Origin: a virus
Lineage: Duplodnaviria; Caudoviricetes
Reading direction: 5' to 3' (one strand)
Virus record (IMG/VR): IMGVR_UViG_3300005512_000263
Location: 1 to 27,786 of that record
DNA length: 27,786 nucleotides
Shown here: in pieces, positions 1,709 to 27,786 of the stretch
How the letters are laid out: each line of letters begins with the position of its first letter
Numbering within the stretch: position 1 is the stretch's first letter
Notes under the pieces: generated by a model
Told to the model about the DNA's origin: nothing
Databases searched by the model: none
What the model saw: the letters and a program-made list of their open reading frames with translations, nothing else
Program-made: the position numbers and the translations under genes

Positions 1709-1766
1709 GTTTAACGCTTAAATAACCGGCGCGGCTTTTTGCGTCCGGTTGATTGGTTGGTTATAT
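1709..1766 (-). mobile_element. Canonical integron attC site (58 bp) closing the left MTase cassette
   Basis: Minus strand ATATAAC-CAACCAAT-[C]-AACCGG-[A]-CGC-loop-GCG-CCGGTT-ATTTAAGC-GTTAAAC; AAC/GTTRRRY cores and two extrahelical bases at attC positions. Confidence 0.85.
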
Positions 1767-2482
1767 TGCGCACCTTCGATTCTCTGTTTTGCGATTTCAA
1801 AATACTTTTCGTCAAGTTCAATGCCAATGAAATCACGGTTTAAGTTTTTACAGGCAACACCTGTTGTTCCTGAACCCATGCAGTTATCAAGAACGGTATC
1901 GCCTTTATTGGTATAGGTTTTGATTAGGTATTCGATTAAGGCTACGGGTTTTTGGGTTGGGTGCAGCTTGCCTTTCTGTACGCTAGTGTTAAATCGTTGT
2001 ATTGTTGTTGGATATTTTCCTTCCAATTTTCTTGTTTTACCGTCATGAGAGGTCATAGAGGACGAACCGCTTAAAGATGCTTTTTTTCTTGTATAAATTC
2101 TGGGTTTGTCTCTTGGTGTCATTCGTGGGTAATATTTTGTTTTCCCTTTGCCAAAAACGCATATATCTTCATGATTGCCCATCGGTCTGAATTTGGCGTA
2201 ACCGTGCCCCACTGGCAGCGATTTTTCAAAAACCCATTGATACTTAAAAAACTTTCTGTTGCTCATAACTAAAGTAGATGTAAACGGCTGACTTGCAAAT
2301 AAAACAATAGCAGCATTGTCCTTACATATTCGCTTGTAATGGTGCCAAAGCATATCAAGGGGTAATACGGTATCCCACTTGCAGGCCGTTGTCCCGTACG
2401 GCATGTCACAACAAACCATATCCACGCTACGGTCTGGAATATCGAACATCTCCTTCAAGCAATCGCCGTGTATCAGTTTCAT
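1718..2482 (-). CDS. DNA amino-methyltransferase (N6A/N4C, beta class), gene cassette
   Basis: DMPY catalytic motif, HPTQKP, VLDNCMGSGTTG SAM motif, FIGIELD; C-terminal tail reads through the attC. Confidence 0.95.
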   Translation of the reverse strand: MKLIHGDCLKEMFDIPDRSVDMVCCDMPYGTTACKWDTVLPLDMLWHHYKRICKDNAAIVLFASQPFTSTLVMSNRKFFKYQWVFEKSLPVGHGYAKFRPMGNHEDICVFGKGKTKYYPRMTPRDKPRIYTRKKASLSGSSSMTSHDGKTRKLEGKYPTTIQRFNTSVQKGKLHPTQKPVALIEYLIKTYTNKGDTVLDNCMGSGTTGVACKNLNRDFIGIELDEKYFEIAKQRIEGAQYNQPINRTQKAAPVI

Positions 2483-2509
2483 TTTACCTCGTATCCCGTT
2501 TAGCGATAT

Positions 2510-2570
2510 AATAAGTGATTATACAGACCTGGAAAGCACTCATTTTGTAATGTTATCCAGGCAGGTTTAT
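2510..2570 (-). mobile_element. attI-like cassette insertion platform (left)
   Basis: ATAAACCTGCCTGGATAACAT-N18-CAGGTCTGTATAATCACTTA|TT; same layout as 15154-15214; the sequence after the junction (TTATATCGC) nearly complements the cassette's R'' (GCAATATAAC). Confidence 0.7.
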
Positions 2571-15030: not shown

Positions 15031-15157
15031 GGAAGAATTGATCAAAGAGATCGAAAGAAAGATTGAAGATGAGAAAGCCCTGTCAGGCGAATATTACACA
15101 GGCCGGGTGGCGGCGTTTTTATATGTGTTGAGCTTGTTGGAAGACGATGCAGAATAA
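15023..15157 (+). CDS. Small hypothetical protein
   Basis: MNKEELIKEIERKIEDEK...; overlaps the upstream stop; its stop abuts the attI-like site. Confidence 0.6.
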   Translation: MNKEELIKEIERKIEDEKALSGEYYTGRVAAFLYVLSLLEDDAE

Positions 15158-15214
15158 ACCTGCCTGGATAACATGCGGATTTGAAAGATACACAGGTCTG
15201 GATAACTACTTATT
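15154..15214 (+). mobile_element. attI-like cassette insertion platform (right)
   Basis: ATAAACCTGCCTGGATAACAT-N18-CAGGTCTGGATAACTACTTA|TT; L box GGATAAC, 5 bp, ATT core. Confidence 0.7.
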
Positions 15215-15292
15215 GGCTTAGACACCCTTCGGGAGCGTCGCCAATAATTGGCTACTACGGCCGAGCCGCAGAGCAGGTCAAAGGGAAAAGGA

Positions 15293-16060
15293 ATGATTGA
15301 AATATTAAATAAAGATTGCAGAGAGTATCTGTTCGTTTGTGAACCGAACTCAGTTGATTTGACAGTAACTTCACCACCTTATGATAATCTTAGAGCCTAT
15401 AATAAAACATCTACTTGGGGATGGCCTGAATTTTCTGCTATCGCCGCTGGATTGTGGCGAGTAACGAAACCCGGTGGTGTTGTGGTTTGGGTTGTTGCGG
15501 ATTCTACGATTAAAGGAAGCGAGTCAGGAAGCAGTTTTGAACAAGCATTGTTTTTTAAAAAATGTGGTTTCAATCTACATGATACTATGATTTATGCGAA
15601 AAATAGCTACATGCCACTTACACACAACAGGTATGAGCAAGCATTTGAATACACATTTGTTTTCAGTAAGGGCAAACCAACATATTTTTACCCAAAAATG
15701 GTTGATTGTGTAACAGCAGGAACCAAACGGAATAGAGGTGGAAGTAAAGCAAAAGAACTAACGTATGCGGAAAGGTGTAGGGAAGAACGAACGGTTGTGA
15801 GACCTAAAAAACAAGCCCCAAATATTTTCTATTATGATGTAGGGAAAAATGAAAAAACAATCCATAATGCCGTGTTCCCAGAAAAATTAGCCCACGACCA
15901 TATATCCACATGGAGCGACAAGCCTTGTGTGGTTTTTGATCCATTTATGGGATCTGGAACAACAGGCGTGGCGGCAAAACAATTAAATCGTGATTTTATC
16001 GGGATTGAGATTGACCCTGAGTATTTTGAGATAGCAAAGCATAGGATCAAAGCGGCATAA
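15293..16060 (+). CDS. DNA methyltransferase (N4C/N6A beta class), cassette 1
   Basis: TSPPY, HNAVFP, FDPFMGSGTTG, FIGIEID. Confidence 0.95.
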   Translation: MIEILNKDCREYLFVCEPNSVDLTVTSPPYDNLRAYNKTSTWGWPEFSAIAAGLWRVTKPGGVVVWVVADSTIKGSESGSSFEQALFFKKCGFNLHDTMIYAKNSYMPLTHNRYEQAFEYTFVFSKGKPTYFYPKMVDCVTAGTKRNRGGSKAKELTYAERCREERTVVRPKKQAPNIFYYDVGKNEKTIHNAVFPEKLAHDHISTWSDKPCVVFDPFMGSGTTGVAAKQLNRDFIGIEIDPEYFEIAKHRIKAA

Positions 16061-16108
16061 CGCCAATAAAATAATACACCGGACGAGCCGGTGATCATTA
16101 CATTAGGG
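16061..16108 (+). mobile_element. attC-like site 1 (AAT/ATT core, 48 bp)
   Basis: CGCCAAT-N8-[A]-CACCGG-[A]-CGAG-CCGGTG-N8-ATTAGGG. Confidence 0.75.
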
Positions 16109-16114
16109 GGACAC

Positions 16115-16378
16115 ATGACAAAAATAGAAACTATACTGCACGAAAAGGTTAAAAAGCGCAATTTTCAAGGAACTGGGTGGAGATATTTAGATTTACCCAC
16201 AAAGATTCACCTACGTGCCATGTGCGAGATAATTCAAGATATCATAACCGAACAGCCCCCTAATACTCAAATCCACGTGGATGAAGACTTTTGCGACTGT
16301 GACCCAGATGAACGAAAAATAATGATAGAAGCGGGGCTTTCTTTTTGCCACTGGTGCGGGAAAAGTCTTCACCAGTGA
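16115..16378 (+). CDS. Cassette 2 hypothetical protein with a Cys-rich tail encoded in the attC loop
   Basis: GGGGG RBS; C-terminal CDC...CHWC. Confidence 0.65.
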   Translation: MTKIETILHEKVKKRNFQGTGWRYLDLPTKIHLRAMCEIIQDIITEQPPNTQIHVDEDFCDCDPDERKIMIEAGLSFCHWCGKSLHQ

Positions 16379-16393
16379 TCCCCGACATTAGGG
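16258..16393 (+). mobile_element. attC-like site 2 (136 bp)
   Basis: CCCTAAT-N8-[C]-CAC[G]TGG-[A]-TGAAGACTTTT...AAAAGTCTTCA-CCAGTG-N9-ATTAGGG. Confidence 0.8.
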
Positions 16394-16412
16394 CGACTGA
16401 AAGGAACTAACA

Positions 16413-16610
16413 ATGACAGAAAAAGAAAAGAAGGCTTTAGATTTTATCTTTGAATGGGGTGGATATGATGGTGGTCATCATAAGCAATGGGCACTTGATC
16501 AGGTCGTCAGAATTTTAAGTGAGGATGAATACCATAAATGGGTTGCTAAATATGAAGACGGTGAAGATGGCCCGAAAACATATGAATGGGATGAAGGGAT
16601 TGCGCCCTAA
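16413..16610 (+). CDS. Cassette 3 small acidic phage protein
   Basis: GGYDGGHHKQWALDQVVRIL...WDEGIAP; stop codon lies inside R''. Confidence 0.8.
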   Translation: MTEKEKKALDFIFEWGGYDGGHHKQWALDQVVRILSEDEYHKWVAKYEDGEDGPKTYEWDEGIAP

Positions 16611-16664
16611 TTATGTTAATCGACCGGACAATGAAAAGACTTGCCGGTCATACCGGCATTATTT
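16605..16664 (+). mobile_element. attC-like site 3
   Basis: CCCTAAT-N9-[C]-GACCGG-[A]-CAA...TTG-CCGGTC-N8-ATTATTT. Confidence 0.8.
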
Positions 16665-16678
16665 TTTTGGAGGTAAAA

Positions 16679-16906
16679 ATGAAAACCATGAAGGCTAAGT
16701 ATCAAAATGATCCACAGTATAAACAAACTGTCGATATTATGGAACACCTTATACGTGAGAACCAATTCACTCCGTCTGAAATACGTGAAATGGCAGTTTT
16801 AGCTTGTATTAATTATGAAATGTCAAGGCCCAATCCGCCTTCATTTGTGTTAACTCCTGAGGTTGAATCTTCTTTAAAAACTTTGCAAAAGTTGAGGGAA
16901 AAATAA
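16679..16906 (+). CDS. Cassette 4 hypothetical protein
   Basis: GGAGGT RBS; KYQNDPQYKQTVD...TPSEIREMA; stop inside R''. Confidence 0.75.
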   Translation: MKTMKAKYQNDPQYKQTVDIMEHLIRENQFTPSEIREMAVLACINYEMSRPNPPSFVLTPEVESSLKTLQKLREK

Positions 16907-16958
16907 TCAGCTCATGCACTGAATGCAAAAAGCCGCACCAGTGATGTGCGTATTATTT
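16901..16958 (+). mobile_element. attC-like site 4
   Basis: AAATAAT-N8-[G]-CACTGA-[A]-TGC-AAAAAGCC-GCA-CCAGTG-N8-ATTATTT; apex GCAAAAAGCCGC shared with the left attC. Confidence 0.8.
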
Positions 16959-16973
16959 TTTTAGGAGGTAAAA

Positions 16974-17114
16974 ATGGCATACTTGGCTTACGGATTGGCA
17001 TGGGTTTCTACATCAGCAGGTGTTTGTTGTGCTGTGTACATAACACATAGTGCGTGGCCTATTTTTGGCTTTATTTTTCCAGCATTTATATCAATAACCA
17101 ATAGCAAAAAATAA
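16974..17114 (+). CDS. Cassette 5 small membrane protein (46 aa, not in ORF track)
   Basis: AGGAGGT RBS; MAYLAYGLAWVSTSAGVCCAVYITHSAWPIFGFIFPAFISITNSKK; stop inside R''. Confidence 0.7.
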   Translation: MAYLAYGLAWVSTSAGVCCAVYITHSAWPIFGFIFPAFISITNSKK

Positions 17115-17166
17115 TAAAACAATGCTACCGATTCGCTGCGCTCACGGCAGATCGTTGGCATTCTTC
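17109..17166 (+). mobile_element. attC-like site 5
   Basis: AAATAAT-N8-[G]-CTACCG-[A]-loop-CGGCAG-N9-ATTCTTC. Confidence 0.75.
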
Positions 17167-17185
17167 GCATGGAGGCATAACTAAA

Positions 17186-17347
17186 ATGAATACAGAAAAA
17201 TGGTCTTGGATGATGGAATACTGCAAAAAGAAACGTATACCACCAGCAGAAACGTGGGCGTGGCGTGAAGCAGAAAAGGCATATCTAAAAGAGTTGAAAG
17301 CGAAGAATAAAAAGTTGAAGATCGGTATCGCTTCGCTCACGACTTAA
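17186..17347 (+). CDS. Cassette 6 small Trp-rich protein (53 aa, not in ORF track)
   Basis: GGAGG RBS; MNTEKWSWMMEYCKKKRIPPAETWAWREAEKAYLKELK... Confidence 0.7.
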   Translation: MNTEKWSWMMEYCKKKRIPPAETWAWREAEKAYLKELKAKNKKLKIGIASLTT

Positions 17348-17361
17348 CTAAATCATTAGGA
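17302..17361 (+). mobile_element. attC-like site 6
   Basis: GAAGAAT-N8-[G]-AAG[A]TCG-loop-CGACTT-N9-ATTAGGA. Confidence 0.75.
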
Positions 17362-17367
17362 GGACTT

Positions 17368-17547
17368 ATGGGCAAACCAACAGAGTTGCTGGAAAAACTA
17401 AATATTTGCATTTATTATGGCGATTGCCCTTTTAACTTTATGGATTGCCAGGAAGACGAGCCTTGGTTTATATGTCCAGAATATCAACCGTCAGTGGAAA
17501 GCAAAAAATACAAAAACAGAACCGGCAGGCTCCAAAACATTGGGTAA
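17368..17547 (+). CDS. Small Cys-containing hypothetical protein (59 aa)
   Basis: AGGAGG RBS; four Cys; no attC found after it. Confidence 0.55.
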   Translation: MGKPTELLEKLNICIYYGDCPFNFMDCQEDEPWFICPEYQPSVESKKYKNRTGRLQNIG

Positions 17548-17571: not shown

Positions 17572-17820
17572 ATGTTTACACTTATGACCCAAAAGACGTT
17601 TTGGGTATCGGTCTTCCCCTGTATAGCCAGGGATCAACACGGATGTGAGAGAGGTTTAATCAATGGGATCAAAATACAACTGGAAGCCATGGAATCTGTG
17701 GATCGAATACACACCGTGGGTTTATTTCAGAGTGTCGATAAAAACCAAACACGGTTGGAGAACTATGTTCCATTTTTGGGTGTAATTGATACAAATAAAA
17801 CAATGGGGCCGACTCGGTGA
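17572..17820 (+). CDS. Hypothetical protein
   Basis: ORF on the operon strand; no recognised motif. Confidence 0.3.
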   Translation: MFTLMTQKTFWVSVFPCIARDQHGCERGLINGIKIQLEAMESVDRIHTVGLFQSVDKNQTRLENYVPFLGVIDTNKTMGPTR

Positions 17821-17933
17821 GCAATATGCCCAGAAATGGGAGAGCATCCGATAGCGCGCAAGGAAGGACGTTGCTCGACCTGCGCGTGTGCGGCCTGAAT
17901 TTGGGCAGGCCCCATTACTTTGAAAGGCGAAAA

Positions 17934-18044: not shown

Positions 18045-18425
18045 TTGATTTCTACATTGCCACAAATAGTTGACATAGACGGTCTTGCTAAGATATTGTC
18101 ATGTAGCAAGTCAACGATCCTGCAAACCTGGAGGCGGTATCCTCATTTCTTTATAGGGAAAGGAGATACTGCAAAAGGGGTCAGGTTCGACGTGCTTGAT
18201 GTTGTCGATTATTTAAAAGGCAGAGATTATGCCAACCTGGGATCAGAAAACAAAGAGCTTCAAAGGACGGGTGCGGATAGGCGGACATCCGCAAACCGTA
18301 AGAACAGGATTTTTGAACAGGGAAGCCGCAAAGAGATGGGAACTCAACACCAAACACGCTCTCAAGAATCAAAAACCTGTCACAGAACCGGAGATCCGTT
18401 TAACCTTTGCATCGGGGTCCACTGA
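18045..18425 (+). CDS. Excisionase/AlpA-like winged-helix protein overlapping int
   Basis: VDIDGLAKILSCSKSTILQ...YPHFFIG...VRFDVLDVVDYL, immediately upstream of the integrase. Confidence 0.75.
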   Translation: MISTLPQIVDIDGLAKILSCSKSTILQTWRRYPHFFIGKGDTAKGVRFDVLDVVDYLKGRDYANLGSENKELQRTGADRRTSANRKNRIFEQGSRKEMGTQHQTRSQESKTCHRTGDPFNLCIGVH

Positions 18426-19281
18426 TTATCTAACGCATTGTCAAAATCACGATTACGCACCAGGGACAATCGTTACCAAGTCACAAATTGTAAGAGACTT
18501 CATATCATTCCTGAAACACGACCCACCAATTGAATCAATTGATTCCAATATAATCGAATCCTATCTCAATTCAAAACAAAAAAAGAAGACAGCAAACCGG
18601 CATTTGAGAGAGTTAAAAACCATTTTTAACTGGCTCAAGAAAAACAAATATGTTGCCGGCAATCCATGCGAAGACATAGAAAAATATCGAGTTACGAAGC
18701 ATTACCCTTATGTCCCGCCGCCAGAAGATATCAACAAGGTTCTTCTTGTCGCTGATGATTTCCAGTATGATTTTTTGCAGACCATCTATCACCTGTCGGC
18801 AAGAAGAAAAGAGGTTATGAATTTAAAATGGGAAGATGTAGACTTTGAAAACAGGACAGTCTCCGTGTGGACCCGTAAAAGATTCGGCGGCGACATGGAA
18901 AGGGACACGCTTGGAATGAACAGCATCCTTTACGGAATACTCAAGTCCAGGCATGACCATAAATGCTGTGAATGGGTATTCCATGATAATGGTAAACATC
19001 TTACCCGGTCAAAGATTGAGAAGATGGTCAACAAATTGTGCGAGAAAGCAGGAGTTAAAAAGTTTGGATTCCATTCAATCAGGCACCATGTATCTGCATT
19101 AATGGCAGCCAGCAAAAAACTTTCTTTGGTTGACATTCAACGGCAATTAAGGCATAAAAGCGCAACGACAACAAACCACTATTTAACAGGCTTGGTAAAC
19201 GAAAGTAACGCGGCGGAAGTGATAGAAGAAATGCAGACAAACAGACAATCAAATATTGTGCCAATAAGACAAAAAAAATAA
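18229..19281 (+). CDS. int: Phage tyrosine integrase
   Basis: R (ARRKEV), K, HSIRH, LRH and Y (TNHY) catalytic residues; N-terminal arm-binding and core-binding domains. Confidence 0.93.
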   Translation: MPTWDQKTKSFKGRVRIGGHPQTVRTGFLNREAAKRWELNTKHALKNQKPVTEPEIRLTFASGSTDYLTHCQNHDYAPGTIVTKSQIVRDFISFLKHDPPIESIDSNIIESYLNSKQKKKTANRHLRELKTIFNWLKKNKYVAGNPCEDIEKYRVTKHYPYVPPPEDINKVLLVADDFQYDFLQTIYHLSARRKEVMNLKWEDVDFENRTVSVWTRKRFGGDMERDTLGMNSILYGILKSRHDHKCCEWVFHDNGKHLTRSKIEKMVNKLCEKAGVKKFGFHSIRHHVSALMAASKKLSLVDIQRQLRHKSATTTNHYLTGLVNESNAAEVIEEMQTNRQSNIVPIRQKK

Positions 19282-21687: not shown

Positions 21688-23388
21688 CTATGTTATTGTA
21701 TACGTTCTTTCTTCTGCTTCTATTCCATACGTTCTGTTCTCTGCCAGGATGCTATATATCCTCCACGCTGGTGTATCTGGGGCAGAAAAGTTTAGTCTTG
21801 GTGAACCCAACACCGGAGTGCTTGCCGTGATACCCAAAGCGGCCAATACGTGAGTCTGGCCTATTAATAATGAACCAACCACCGGGAGGCCGGTTGTGAC
21901 ACCATCTGAAACAAAAGAATGGATTTGGCCGATAGCCGGTGAGCCGATATCTGGGGAACTATTTGTTATGCCGGTTGCGGATAGGGTATGGGTCTGCCCA
22001 AGCCCAGGGGATACTAAAACCGGTGTACCTGCAGTAATATCTAAAAGAGAAAGGCCATTGATGGTCCCGGAGCCAAGATCAGGTGACCCAAGCACAGGCG
22101 TACTTGCGGTTATGTCTTCAGGTGATAACGTATGGGTCTGGCCAACCGATGGGGTCCCAAGCTCCGGTATACCTGAGATAAAATCCTCGAGAACAAACGA
22201 GTGGGTCTGACCAACCGCAGGAGATTCAATATCAGGAGCGCCCGTCGTGATATCTGAAGCGATTAGGGTGCTGGTCTGGCCAATGGCCGGGGAGGCTATA
22301 TCAGGTATTCCGGAAACAAAACCTGTCGGTGATAACGTATGGGTCTGGCCAAGGTTGGGTGAACCTAAAACAGGGGTGCCGGTAATCAAGTTTATGGGCA
22401 ATAAAGTTGAAGGTGGTTCTGCGGCTGAATCAAAAACAAAAAACAACTGATCATCATCAAAAAATGATGTGGTGATTGTCGGTTTTATAAACTCAATATC
22501 AGACGGCCATCTTAGAGTTGATGCGCCGTCATCTGCAATTGACCATGTTTTAATTGATGTCAGATACAGTTTTTTATTTGCCGGTGCGCCTGTGTAATAT
22601 TTGGCTGATCCGAAATGTGCTGATACCCCCGACTGTAAATTTTGGTGCGACCAATTGACAAGGGCCTTGGAATATATTTCGTCCGTTAGTCCTGAGCAAT
22701 TGCGGAACGCATAGTAAAAGGTCGTGACTGCTGAGACATCCCAGGACGACACGTCCAGTGTTGTCAAAGATGAGCAACTGCGGAACGCATAGTAAAAGGT
22801 CGTGACTGCTGAGACATCCCAGGACGACACGTCCAGTGTTGTCAAAGATGAGCAATTGTAGAACGCATAGTAAAAGCTCTCGACTGCTGAGACATCCCAG
22901 GACGACACGTCCAGTGTTGTCAAAGATGAGCAATTGCAGAACGCATAGTAAAAGCTCTCGACTGCTGAGACATCCCAGGACGAAACGTCCAGTGTTGTCA
23001 AAGATGAGCAACTGCGGAACGCAGAGGAAAAGCTCGTGACTGCTGATATACCAAAGATCCCGGTTGCACTAACAGTCATGCCAGAACAACCATAGAAAAA
23101 GGCGACATTCGCCCCGACATCCAGGTCACCCCAATCTGAAACATCCCGAACTTTAGGGGCAGACGAGGAATTATCAAATTTCCAGCCGGTTATTGTGCCA
23201 GTAATTGTGATTGTGTAGGTATCAGCGGTCGCATATGTGTGAGTAATAGCAGCATCGTTATAAGTGGTGATATCATCATCTGACGAATCACCCCAATCAA
23301 CATTAAAATCATAAGTGCCATTGCTGGTCAGGGGCAGAGTAAATGTCTCTGACGCCCCGGTAGTCAGTATGTCAAATACAAATGCCAT
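21688..23388 (-). CDS. PKD + DUF285/BspA-like LRR surface protein with C-terminal ~24-aa repeats (putative receptor-binding protein)
   Basis: VDWGD...HTYA PKD domain; WDVSAVxxFxxAFxxCSSL repeats; GQTHxL...GxPxxxSP repeats. Confidence 0.85.
   Translation of the reverse strand: MAFVFDILTTGASETFTLPLTSNGTYDFNVDWGDSSDDDITTYNDAAITHTYATADTYTITITGTITGWKFDNSSSAPKVRDVSDWGDLDVGANVAFFYGCSGMTVSATGIFGISAVTSFSSAFRSCSSLTTLDVSSWDVSAVESFYYAFCNCSSLTTLDVSSWDVSAVESFYYAFYNCSSLTTLDVSSWDVSAVTTFYYAFRSCSSLTTLDVSSWDVSAVTTFYYAFRNCSGLTDEIYSKALVNWSHQNLQSGVSAHFGSAKYYTGAPANKKLYLTSIKTWSIADDGASTLRWPSDIEFIKPTITTSFFDDDQLFFVFDSAAEPPSTLLPINLITGTPVLGSPNLGQTHTLSPTGFVSGIPDIASPAIGQTSTLIASDITTGAPDIESPAVGQTHSFVLEDFISGIPELGTPSVGQTHTLSPEDITASTPVLGSPDLGSGTINGLSLLDITAGTPVLVSPGLGQTHTLSATGITNSSPDIGSPAIGQIHSFVSDGVTTGLPVVGSLLIGQTHVLAALGITASTPVLGSPRLNFSAPDTPAWRIYSILAENRTYGIEAEERTYTIT
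22693..23046. repeat. 78-bp tandem repeat x4.5 encoding 26-aa LRR units
   Basis: Near-identical units differing at a few fixed columns. Confidence 0.95.
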
Positions 23389-23576
23389 TAGAGGGTAATA
23401 TTCACTTCACGGAATACTTCGGTGAAATCGGTTACTTTATCCGGATCTATATAGACGGAATTATCCGTAATATTCACTTCACGGAATACTTTGGTGAAAT
23501 CGGTTACTTCATCCGTGTTCCAGGGTTCGATATCAGAATCTTCAAACGTGTAAGACAAGGATTCTTCGCTAAACAT
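23388..23576 (-). CDS. 62-aa mini DUF285-like repeat protein
   Basis: AAGGAG RBS; WNTDEVTDFTKVFREVNIT / DPDKVTDFTEVFREVNIT; 49-bp duplication with a 72-bp period. Confidence 0.6.
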   Translation of the reverse strand: MFSEESLSYTFEDSDIEPWNTDEVTDFTKVFREVNITDNSVYIDPDKVTDFTEVFREVNITL

Positions 23577-23589
23577 GTTATTTCTCCTT

Positions 23590-23988
23590 TTAATTAAAAC
23601 CGATATAATGGACTGTTGAAATATCGTGGCTGTCAGTGCTGTCGTCCTGGACAAAACCCACCTGCAAATAAGCCGGTGGGTTGAAGATCATAAGCGTAAG
23701 CTGCTCAGGATCTTTTGACTTGTCACCGGCAATTAGATCCATGGGTGTATCATCAAAGTTTGTGCCGTCTTTGCTGCCGTAGATGTAGATTGCTATGTTG
23801 GCGGTTGGTGTTGCATCATAATTAATATCAATCGTCAACTGTAGAGACCAATACGTTCGACAATCAATACTGCCAGTCTTGGATTCTGTTGTTGTTGATA
23901 ATGTCTCAGCCGCCGTGGTAGGTGTTCCGGTTGTCCAGGTATCGTCATTCCAATCGTGTTGGTAGGTATCTCCTGCTGTCCGTGCCAT
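23590..23988 (-). CDS. Putative virion protein (beta-sandwich)
   Basis: Thr/Asp-rich, YGSKDGTNFD; tail-module position. Confidence 0.65.
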   Translation of the reverse strand: MARTAGDTYQHDWNDDTWTTGTPTTAAETLSTTTESKTGSIDCRTYWSLQLTIDINYDATPTANIAIYIYGSKDGTNFDDTPMDLIAGDKSKDPEQLTLMIFNPPAYLQVGFVQDDSTDSHDISTVHYIGFN

Positions 23989-24459: not shown

Positions 24460-27400
24460 TTATCTGGCCTGTTGAATCCTTTGGAACAATGCCTTCGATA
24501 TCTGACTTTTTATCTTATTCAGCCGGTCTATTTTTTCTTGTTTTTCAAGTCCCGGGATGTCTGCGCGCTGGACCCGTTTCAGCTCTTGGTTAATCTCAGC
24601 CAGGGCAGACCGAATTTTATTTACCGGAGTTTTCATTGAAATAAGGTCTTTCTCTTTCTCGTAAAAGTCCTTTGCCTTGTCCACCTGGCCTGTTTTTACG
24701 TAATGGCTCAGGGTCCGGTGAGCGCTGTCAACCTCTTCATACAACTTATAAAAGCGCGTGATATACTTGGTTGACCTGGGCTCACCCGTTTCCTTGATCC
24801 TCAGCATAAACGGGTTTGAAGCCCTGGAAGGCTTGTCTGGATAATCCATGGCCCATCTTGTCACAACGTCCGTTCCGGTAAGCACCATGGCCCCAATCGT
24901 TGACAAATAGCCATTGACATAATGCTGCAATTTTATAGGGGAAACATTCAGCGCGCCGCCGATCATTCTCATGGTGTCTGCTGTCCATGGCTGGTATTGC
25001 TCAGACGGCCTCAAGCTGGCCATGCTGTCGGGCACGATTGCCCTTCCACGGAATGTGTCCTTGTTAAACCGCTCTTCAATGACCGGCTTGAAAAGCTGTG
25101 GGATGTCAACATTGAAAACCGAATGTGACGTGAATTTAAACCAGTCCCAGACAAACTTTCCCTCTTCCGTCTTATTCTGGACATTGCCGATACTTTCCGG
25201 CAGACTGCAGAACAGGGCGCCAATCTCAAAGGGCTTTGGCAGCCGGTAATGGTCGTCTCCGATCCAAAAGTGAAAGTATGTCCATTTGTCCCAATCTTCC
25301 AAATCTTTATACCGGTCGTCATCTTTAAATTGTGCCCATAAGGCCATGGCGGCCGTGGTCAATAAAGCGGACTTTAAAAGAAATGCTTTCGGATTTTCTC
25401 TTGAAGCCCTGCCCAATTTATAAAGGGCCTGGAACCTGGCATTCAGAAACGGGACGATCCGGGTTAATATCTGAACCGTCTGTGAAGACCCGCGCATGGA
25501 AAAATCCATTAAGTCGCGGCCTTCAAACCCGGCGTCAAAGTTGCTCATGCCTTTTTTCTTCAGGTTCGTGTAAAGCCCTAACCTGGCAGCATTTTCAGAA
25601 GCAGACCCGATCTTATCCCATAGTCTGAACAACTTATTGTCCCATGGCCTTAAGGGGTCAATTATCCTCCGCAGTGCCCCCTTGCCCTCATGCCTGATAA
25701 TCCGTTTAAGGAACCTTGACCCCTCCTTCGGATTATCAGAGTTGACATAGGAAGACCCGAACCCAAACCCGGACGCCATGTATTCAATATAATCCGCATC
25801 CTCTCTCATGGCTTTCAAGAAACCTCTGGCCGTGTCCATGAACGGAACGAAAGATTTTGATACAACCGACGTATGAACCGTGTCACGGATCATATTCCGG
25901 ATACGGAAAGCAGGCCCGAAGGTTGCCCCGTAAGACAGCAGTCTTTTTGCGCCCCCCATCATCCGCATGAAAACATTGTTGAAGGCTGCGGTGTCTACTT
26001 CTGAAAGTGCTTCAAACAAATCCATGTCATCGGTCTTGAAATAGACGGCCTCCCCATTCTTCTGGAAAGACAAAATGCCATGATCCCTCATGCTGCCGAA
26101 CACCACCTTATATGTGGTGCGCGGTTCAACCTTATAGTTGCCCTTCCCCTTGTCAGCCAGATCATAGGCCCATGCGTCGGCCTCTTCTTTCGTGTCAAAG
26201 ATATCCCTTGCCTTTTTGGCTCCTTCTTTTATGACGGCAAACCGCTTGATGGTTTCAGACCCAAGGACCTTCACGAGGTCTTTTTTAGAGACTTCTTTTA
26301 TAATCCCCACATGGCTTCCGACTTCAAACGCTGCAGACCTGGCCCTGTTCATTGCTGCCGCGTCAATAAGGTGCATCCAGTTTGTCATCAGGTTTTCCAA
26401 AGGGTCCCCGATCTTGGCATTGCCGCCCTTTAATTTCTTAATTTGCGCGGAAATATGTTTCTTGCTGCGATGGGGTCCGGACAAGAACTCCTGCTTCGTG
26501 GTCTCGTCCTCGAAAATCCGATAAAAGGGGATATAAAAGTTTGACTCCCACATTGCCCGGGCTTCCGGGTCAATCAGCCCGGCTTGTTCTGCAATGTCCA
26601 GGACATTCTTATTGATGGTCTGGAATCGTAAATTCAATTCCTTCCAGGATTTACCGCTTTTGGAATGGGTCCCGACCTTGGCAAATATTTTTTCCCGGGC
26701 ATCTTTGTCCAGCCAGTTTTCCCGGCCTTCTGCTTCAAGCTGTTCGGCCCGTTTGGCAGACACCCAATATAAAAGGTTCTGCCAGTCAGGCCCGATGGAT
26801 TTAAGGAACGGCAGCACGCCCTTGTTCCTTGTCGTCACGGTCAGCGCATCATCGGCCCATGACAATGGACCATGCTCAAGGAACATGGCAAAGGTGGCCG
26901 TCTTGACCCCGGTAAGCTGCCGGTGCAGTTTATAAGACCGGTCGTCCAGCCGTTTTTTAATCGGGTATAGCCGGTCAAGGGTTTTTGTGATAAACTTTTC
27001 TGCAGCAATCGCCCGGTCTTCTTTTGACATTGCCTTATCGACCAGTGCTGCCGCTTCTTCCCGGATGGTCGGATCTGAATCGAATTTTTCCTTGATGATG
27101 TCATCTGAGGTTGAGAACCTGATATCCGGGTTGCTTTGGTCCCATGTGCCTTTGTTAAAGACTGATTTTATCTGGGTGGGGGAGAAGGCGACTACTTCTG
27201 TAAGTGTTCTTTCTTTTGGTAAAGATTTCGCTAGTTTTTCGCCATAAGAAGATACAACATCGCCATACTGCATCCCTCTTTTTAAAGAAGTCTCCAGCAT
27301 TTTTTTTGTAGCAAAAGGAGGTAGATCCCTATAAATTTCTGCCCATAGCTTATCACTAATAGGTTGATCGGATTTTATAATGTCCGTGTAAACAAAGACA

Positions 27401-27786
27401 CCATCATATCCTTGATCCATAAGCTCTTTTGTCTTTTCTAATGATGCTCTTTCCCCTCCAATACCACGGAGCGACTTGCCTTCATTCTTACGCCAATCAT
27501 ATGGTTTTTCAATTTTCACATATAATGGGTATATTTGTGGGGTTCCGGCGTTTGCATATTGGTTTGCTATTTCTGGATCAGGGGTAAGGTAAAATCCGCT
27601 TGAAAACCATCCGGTGTCTGTTGTTCTGCTTTTTTTAAGAGAATCAAATTCTGTGAAATTGCTCGGGCTACCATGGTATAATTTTAACGGCTCCGACCCA
27701 GCCTTCCCATCAACCGTGACAACAGAATCACCAAACCATTCCTTGAAAGCTGGGGTATCGGTGTTTCTCTGCTGCCCATCTTCTGA
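24460..27786 (-). CDS. Large polyvalent (probably ejected) protein with ART-PolyVal and C-terminal LPD38 domains; 5' end outside the window
   Basis: Frame is open to the window edge: TPAFKEWFGDS...LYHGS...GFYLT...YPLYV...GYDGV...EVVAFSPTQIKS...NPDIRFS; C-terminal PFLNARFQ...RLPKPFEIG...PIV. Confidence 0.85.
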   Translation of the reverse strand, partial: SEDGQQRNTDTPAFKEWFGDSVVTVDGKAGSEPLKLYHGSPSNFTEFDSLKKSRTTDTGWFSSGFYLTPDPEIANQYANAGTPQIYPLYVKIEKPYDWRKNEGKSLRGIGGERASLEKTKELMDQGYDGVFVYTDIIKSDQPISDKLWAEIYRDLPPFATKKMLETSLKRGMQYGDVVSSYGEKLAKSLPKERTLTEVVAFSPTQIKSVFNKGTWDQSNPDIRFSTSDDIIKEKFDSDPTIREEAAALVDKAMSKEDRAIAAEKFITKTLDRLYPIKKRLDDRSYKLHRQLTGVKTATFAMFLEHGPLSWADDALTVTTRNKGVLPFLKSIGPDWQNLLYWVSAKRAEQLEAEGRENWLDKDAREKIFAKVGTHSKSGKSWKELNLRFQTINKNVLDIAEQAGLIDPEARAMWESNFYIPFYRIFEDETTKQEFLSGPHRSKKHISAQIKKLKGGNAKIGDPLENLMTNWMHLIDAAAMNRARSAAFEVGSHVGIIKEVSKKDLVKVLGSETIKRFAVIKEGAKKARDIFDTKEEADAWAYDLADKGKGNYKVEPRTTYKVVFGSMRDHGILSFQKNGEAVYFKTDDMDLFEALSEVDTAAFNNVFMRMMGGAKRLLSYGATFGPAFRIRNMIRDTVHTSVVSKSFVPFMDTARGFLKAMREDADYIEYMASGFGFGSSYVNSDNPKEGSRFLKRIIRHEGKGALRRIIDPLRPWDNKLFRLWDKIGSASENAARLGLYTNLKKKGMSNFDAGFEGRDLMDFSMRGSSQTVQILTRIVPFLNARFQALYKLGRASRENPKAFLLKSALLTTAAMALWAQFKDDDRYKDLEDWDKWTYFHFWIGDDHYRLPKPFEIGALFCSLPESIGNVQNKTEEGKFVWDWFKFTSHSVFNVDIPQLFKPVIEERFNKDTFRGRAIVPDSMASLRPSEQYQPWTADTMRMIGGALNVSPIKLQHYVNGYLSTIGAMVLTGTDVVTRWAMDYPDKPSRASNPFMLRIKETGEPRSTKYITRFYKLYEEVDSAHRTLSHYVKTGQVDKAKDFYEKEKDLISMKTPVNKIRSALAEINQELKRVQRADIPGLEKQEKIDRLNKIKSQISKALFQRIQQAR

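Follow-up and report, generated by a model that had tools for sequence, protein, structure and literature searches.

An integron-like cassette array with A|TT recombination cores and its own attI-like site in a temperate phage, probably served in trans by a host integrase

The cassette array and its attI-like sites

The window analysed here, positions 1 to 27,786 of IMG/VR virus record IMGVR_UViG_3300005512_000263 (Duplodnaviria; Caudoviricetes), comprises 27.8 kb of a temperate phage and encodes a primase, a helicase, a Sak4-like annealase, a divergent repressor pair, an excisionase and an integrase. Between a repressor gene and the excisionase, and on their strand, lies an integron-like array of six cassettes headed by an attI-like site, in which recombination sites carry AAT...ATT triplets in place of the AAC...GTT of integrons. 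The array and its surroundings contain the following features, in which ORF denotes an open reading frame and a vertical bar the presumed crossover point.

15154..15214, plus strand: attI-like site 1, GGATAACA-N19-CAG-N6-ATAA-N3-CTTA|TT, with an AA-N7-TT core and a putative crossover between 15212 and 15213
15213..16102, plus strand: cassette 1, a structured leader followed by an N6/N4 DNA methyltransferase ORF (15293-16060)
15213..15282, plus strand: cassette 1 leader, a TTGGC...GCCAAT hairpin, then a half-attC (AAT at 15243-15245, L''/L' stem) without R'
16065..16104, plus strand: attC 1, AAT...A|TT
16103..16387, plus strand: cassette 2, an 87-aa ORF (16115-16378) that extends through its own long attC
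16262..16389, plus strand: attC 2, AAT...A|TT, with a long variable loop and three bulges
16388..16658, plus strand: cassette 3, a 65-aa ORF (16413-16610), phrog_23179, with 126 homologues
16609..16660, plus strand: attC 3, AAT...A|TT
16659..16952, plus strand: cassette 4, a 75-aa ORF (16679-16906)
16905..16954, plus strand: attC 4, AAT...A|TT, 92% identical over 52 nt to the attC that closes another gene in phage L009
16953..17160, plus strand: cassette 5, a 46-aa hydrophobic ORF (16974-17114)
17113..17162, plus strand: attC 5, AAT...A|TT
17161..17355, plus strand: cassette 6, a 53-aa ORF (17186-17347) that extends through its own attC
17306..17357, plus strand: attC 6, AAT...A|TT, with L box GTT/AAC and a broken stem
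18229..19281, plus strand: tyrosine integrase of the phage type and no IntI, lying roughly 900 nt 3' of the array

A first-pass annotation made from the letters alone had proposed six attC-shaped sites, and all six were found, each laid out as AAT, a 5-6 nt spacer, an L'' triplet (3 nt), an extrahelical base, a stem, an L' triplet, a 5-6 nt spacer and A|TT. The attC palindrome (R''-spacer-L''...L'-spacer-R') with its unpaired central spacer and extrahelical bases is thus present in the array, and the departure from the conserved AAC/GTT triplets that had been claimed for every site holds in 6/6. Two further claims, that each unit carries a single ORF and that each cassette start complements its own end, are likewise borne out: there is one ORF in each of the six cassettes (255, 87, 65, 75, 46 and 53 aa for cassettes 1-6), and each start pairs with its own R'', with 3, 6, 6, 6, 7 and 6 complementary bases beyond the triplet. 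The small proteins of cassettes 2-6 received no Pfam or PADLOC assignment above cut-off. Against the six sites and six-cassette chain observed, no more than one site appeared in any of 200 dinucleotide shuffles of the array region and a chain of two never did, a comparison that is lenient because the attC scorer was tuned on these same six sites.

The annotated feature list was correct for these sites and incomplete beyond them, having overlooked the attI-like head, the half-attC in the leader, and a second attI-like site that is followed by a canonical cassette:

2510..2570, minus strand: attI-like site 2, with an A|TT core and a putative crossover between 2512 and 2511
1715..2511, minus strand: single cassette at attI-like site 2, encoding an N6/N4 DNA methyltransferase (2482-1718)
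1713..1762, minus strand: canonical attC of this second locus, AAC...G|TT, with an L-box family as in attC 3 and attC 4

The attI-like motif therefore occurs twice in the window, each time heading a cassette locus, where 0.00-0.01 occurrences would be expected by chance; the second copy lies 8-9 nt out of 49 from the closest host-type attI sites. Judged by sequence comparison with attI1 oligonucleotides, the AA-N7-TT geometry is that of an attI core. Assignment as attI draws also on the upstream repeat, the position at the array head and membership in a family linked to intI, a link that runs through one sub-type of the family and through remnants of the gene. Many members of this family carry GGATAACA and an inverted partner, TGTTATCC, about 12 nt apart as an imperfect palindrome, which could possibly form a second integrase-binding pair. 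The half-site of this palindrome also resembles a DnaA box.

According to the first-pass annotation, the A/C mismatches of these sites become G:T pairs on the bottom strand. As read from the L-box and first stem of the six sites, there are five A.C and no G.T appositions, in line with that statement, and the second bulge also fits a bottom-strand substrate. Thermodynamic models are less decisive. In circular forms the predicted fold probability favours the bottom strand at four of the six sites and not at the other two; in minimum-energy folding the bottom strand is lower in 13 of 23 sites, with no clear strand bias. Thermodynamics alone, as modelled, thus gives no clear preference for the bottom strand. 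With attC pairs enforced, the attC fold is predicted to be stronger at 4/6 sites when the cassette is a circle.

The leader of cassette 1 belongs to a recurrent design. Its plan, TT(A/G)GC-hairpin-AAT-half-attC-ribosome-binding site, was found in 12 distinct leaders on 9 contigs (window 15213-15282, L009, L010, L011, L013, L025, L060, L078 and L165), and one gene has diverged but equally shaped leaders in its L009 and L010 copies, a pattern suggestive of selection on structure. One possibility is that these leaders derive from gene-less mini-cassettes whose R' was lost and which fused to the next cassette; another is that they are structures tuning expression or excision. A promoter-like match lies in the window leader at 15219-15248; a promoter conserved among the leaders finds no support, the match, judged by eye, not recurring in others. 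Gene-less integron cassettes are described by Blanco et al. (10.1101/2023.11.21.568050); the phage leaders resemble such units, the window leader in its promoter-like match as well, but lack R' and are fused to a gene cassette.

Two other observations concern the array's sites. The long attC with a variable loop (16262-16389, and in L010, L011, L012 and L100) codes in that loop for the C-terminal, Cys-rich end of its cassette's protein, which makes gene and site overlap. Two possible decayed attC remnants lie 3' of the array (17504-17540 and 17794-17830), behind 59-aa and 82-aa ORFs, and the array may accordingly once have been longer.

Cassette turnover and the A/G split between phages and hosts

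The first-pass annotation also proposed that circular cassettes cross over at A|TT, and suggested comparing cassette order among relatives. That comparison supports the proposal. Three related phages (L009, L010, L012) have identical attI sites. They also have in common a cassette of about 400 nt (94-98% identical), which occupies the second position in L009 and L010 but the third in L012, flanked by different neighbours. L009 lacks the cassette that comes first in L010 and L012, and in L012 an additional cassette separates the two shared ones. Alignments begin or end near A|TT junctions, and for two of the three phage pairs they begin only a few bases from A|TT. Cassettes have thus been gained, lost and reordered at the crossover base in these phages, as expected of a functional platform. 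For the window's own array no close relative was found, L058 being the identical sequence, and no viral relatives were found for the protein encoded upstream of it.

The wider attI family was reached by way of an attC pattern, which led to a second phage whose array head gave a related motif and from it a refined attI consensus. This consensus had 120 listed matches in metagenomes (about 370 estimated overall), and among those listed the core base was G|TT in 108 and A|TT in 12. In IMG/VR, by contrast, the refined A|TT pattern occurs in 5 contigs and its G|TT mirror in none. A relaxed pattern allowing A or G returned 59 IMG/VR loci, of which six were attI-like (24-36 bits; the remainder at or below 11); A|TT closes every one of these six and G|TT none. 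Exact patterns derived from the window found nothing or chance matches only in IMG/VR. The attI DNA had no match in INPHARED phages or PLSDB plasmids, and the attI pattern was absent from 401 genomes of the phylum of G006, a Prolixibacteraceae genome; the AAT/ATT attC pattern had two matches in GTDB, apparently by chance, and Rfam gave none.

The attC cores divide in the same direction. Among 23 sites in phage or phage-like arrays, 20 are AAT/ATT, 2 AAC/GTT and 1 doubtful; restricted to the window and IMG/VR contigs (n=18) the numbers are 15, 2 and 1. At other loci (n=30), 28 are AAC/GTT, one is AAC/ATT and one a weak AAT/ATT. These counts used score cut-offs of 17 for the phage group and 19 for the others; L058 (the window sequence) and one L025 call were removed by hand, and L025, L078 and L100 were grouped with the phages tentatively, on shared leaders and with no hallmark gene. 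The Fisher test on this split (p = 4e-9) is overstated, because several sites can belong to one array and the phages represent about five lineages.

On the host side the family is tied to integron integrases through remnants. Of the 90 G|TT loci whose upstream sequence reaches at least 300 nt, 16 have a divergent integron-integrase start ~180 nt away, and the longest remnant (L054) matches TIGR02249 and full-length integron integrases of 444-591 aa. Matches to this long form are named from Deltaproteobacteria, Chthoniobacter and Methylomonas, and none was found in plasmids. All of these remnants flank a single attI sub-type; a motif scan of 124 loci found no intact tyrosine recombinase. The sub-type nearest the phage sites has 65 G|TT matches, 23 with at least 1 kb upstream, which lie beside ordinary chromosomal genes. 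Hosts may keep dispersed, solitary attI platforms served in trans.

Several observations describe these host loci. Metagenome loci in the range L014-L132 (e.g. L030, L066, L075, L079) have G|TT attI sites with short arrays beside housekeeping genes and no intact intI; of solo host attI sites with at least 1 kb upstream, 0/23 in the Desulfobacterales-like sub-type have intI, and truncated intI occurs only in the other sub-type. Gene-less, strongly self-paired units lie directly behind host G|TT attI sites in L101, L090 and L117. ORFs that by eye resemble reverse transcriptases or maturases lie in or near two host attI loci (L054:3749-5530 and L066:1615-2694). The one in L054 is antiparallel to the cassette array, the orientation of attC-targeting group II introns.

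Which recombinase may serve the sites

As the first-pass annotation stated, no IntI is encoded in the window. The tyrosine integrase downstream of the array scores 43 bits against the IntI profile (cut-off 265), is missing about 36 residues of the IntI insertion region and is 20% identical to a long IntI. A complete integron has an adjacent intI bearing the IntI-specific insertion, which is absent here, whereas at least two clustered attC sites without a neighbouring intI are present and define a cluster of attC sites lacking integron integrase (CALIN). By membership the array is thus a CALIN with its own attI and with sites that fail the AAC/GTT rule, and not a complete integron.

A recombinase of altered or relaxed specificity, which had been held to be implied, turns out not to be needed. 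Wild-type IntI1 recombines ATT x ATT at the wild-type rate (relative frequency 1; Frumerie 2010, PMC2811028, Table 4), since it demands only the same first base in both partners, and its ATT x GTT crosses fall to 3.1-3.4e-3, about 300-fold down. The same study notes that all characterised integrons keep GTT, credits this conservation to cassette exchange between integrons, and deemed a natural coordinated switch of the core unlikely; the crossover triplet is called universal to attI sites by Escudero et al. 2016 (PMC4792948).

We regard it as highly probable that the array is an integrase-less phage integron platform, comprising an attI and AAT...A|TT cassettes, that is likely served in trans by a host IntI, with predicted free exchange among A|TT partners and poor exchange with host G|TT sites. 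In such a system the bottom strand would fold as single-stranded DNA made during phage replication, and the host enzyme would cut between A and T of AAT, inserting and excising cassettes. The single-base docking homology known for IntI1 would sort the partners, so that an A-bearing phage attI would mainly take A cassettes and G cassettes rarely. The split could be selected, with host defence cassettes kept out and genes not lost to host sites, or it could be a neutral lock-in.

A more specific form of this reading is that a group of phages of sulfate-reducing bacteria, with a single base altered in attI and in every attC, owns a private, orthogonal integron through which the host integrase trades accessory and anti-restriction cassettes among phages while excluding the host's G|TT cassettes, anti-phage ones included; we lean towards it, with considerably more reserve. 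The host is likely to belong to the Desulfobacterales, judging by two genes beside the phage-nearest attI sub-type that cluster with Desulfobacterales or Desulfobacteraceae proteins and by a relative of the window integrase labelled Thermodesulfobacteriota.

A number of results weigh against the preferred platform reading and its host assignment. No recombination of these sites has been observed. The viral examples amount to about five lineages, so that the counts are non-independent, and the phage records are partial (12-78% complete). Intact intI was found beside the attI in none of the 33 G|TT loci with at least 1 kb upstream (5 have remnants), and the sub-type that most resembles the phage sites has no remnant at any of its 65 G|TT matches, so that its link to IntI rests on similarity; the argument for the Desulfobacterales is indirect. 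Of the 12 A|TT attI sites in metagenomes, six are cellular-looking or unclassified. Mixed junctions also occur: canonical cassettes lie behind A|TT at the window's second locus and in L013, and likewise behind the A|TT attI of the cellular-looking L016 and L061, while in L101 a gene-less AAT/A|TT unit follows G|TT. Finally, the self-complement rule is broken by three cassettes read by hand (the third of L010, the sixth of L011 and the first of L012).

The mixed junctions imply either that the insulation leaks or that this IntI family is more tolerant than IntI1, and the second possibility is the main rival. It keeps the platform and the host IntI, and holds that the integrase accepts either purine, A|TT being a habit of the lineage (founder effect, AT drift) that gives no real insulation. 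The five or more mixed junctions speak for it, as do the cellular-looking A|TT attI sites with canonical cassettes. Under a tolerant enzyme, however, the far larger host pool should have filled phage arrays with its G cassettes, and instead 15 of the 18 viral calls are AAT/ATT and 28 of the 30 others AAC/GTT; docking homology is moreover a DNA-level constraint in IntI1, whose 0.3% leak can explain rare crosses. The mixed junctions fit such a leak or later mutation, but fit a more tolerant integrase also, and we judge this rival unlikely though serious.

That a dedicated phage-encoded recombinase of changed specificity serves the A|TT sites is very improbable. The phage does encode a tyrosine integrase close to the array, and the related phage records are incomplete, but this enzyme shows no IntI features and is paired with an excisionase, a changed enzyme is not required, and PF00589 had no match in six further A|TT phage records, of which three are 67-78% complete (nor did TIGR02249 in the five tested). 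The least probable account, a fossil formed by a captured host array or by transcription hairpins and rearranged only through homologous recombination between similar junctions, could draw on the weak folding of several attC copies in array form, on the degeneracy of some sites and on similar leaders that could serve recombination by the phage's Sak4-like annealase, but is contradicted by A/T compensated at the two ends of almost all sites as well as at attI, by ends that complement within the cassette and not across junctions, by breakpoints at A|TT between dissimilar neighbours, and by an intact attI at the head of each array.

Elsewhere in the window, two genes on the minus strand stand apart from the cassette loci. 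A DUF285/BspA-like gene (21688-23654) occupies two ORFs of 88 and 566 aa and has a 78-nt tandem repeat around 22693-23046, and a large polyvalent protein with an LPD38 domain (24460-27519) is cut by the window end.

Relation to known integron systems

Among the closest precedents are the phage CALINs of Qi et al. 2023 (PMC9892861), which are clusters of attC sites without intI, carry DNA methyltransferase cargo and are substrates for bacterial IntI1. The array described here is alike in having attC sites without intI and a methyltransferase cargo, and one Shewanella prophage CALIN in that study has its own attI. The junctions verified there read G|TTRRRY and mix into the bacterial pool, whereas here the attI and nearly all attC sites are A|TT, and turnover is visible among related phages. 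A second likeness is to the engineered pair attI1(ATT) x attCaadA7(ATT) of Frumerie 2010, which has the same change of the first core base from G to A and of its partner from C to T; that pair is a laboratory mutant, fully active when its sites match, and the switch described here is natural and lineage-wide. The third is to chromosomal integrons with long-form IntI (444-591 aa), which share the attI family and the attC L-box types, but have G|TT sites and AAC/GTT cassettes, many of them beside housekeeping genes without an intact adjacent intI. No report of natural A|TT arrays was found in the literature searched, which consisted mostly of open papers, and the supplements of Qi 2023 could list such sites.

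Searches for attC based on AAC/GTT may undercount phage arrays, for which the attI consensus offers a simple search handle. If the private, orthogonal reading is true, these arrays would be the natural counterpart of an orthogonal pair otherwise known only from engineered IntI1 sites. A natural lineage outside the shared GTT pool makes the pool-sharing explanation of GTT directly testable and illustrates what a departure from that pool involves. Phages would gain a site-specific route to modular accessory genes (four of these phages carry methyltransferases) that spares them encoding the enzyme themselves. According to Darracq et al. (10.1101/2024.07.02.601686), anti-phage cassettes are stored in chromosomal integrons, and a barrier of one base between the phage and host pools could play a part in that conflict.

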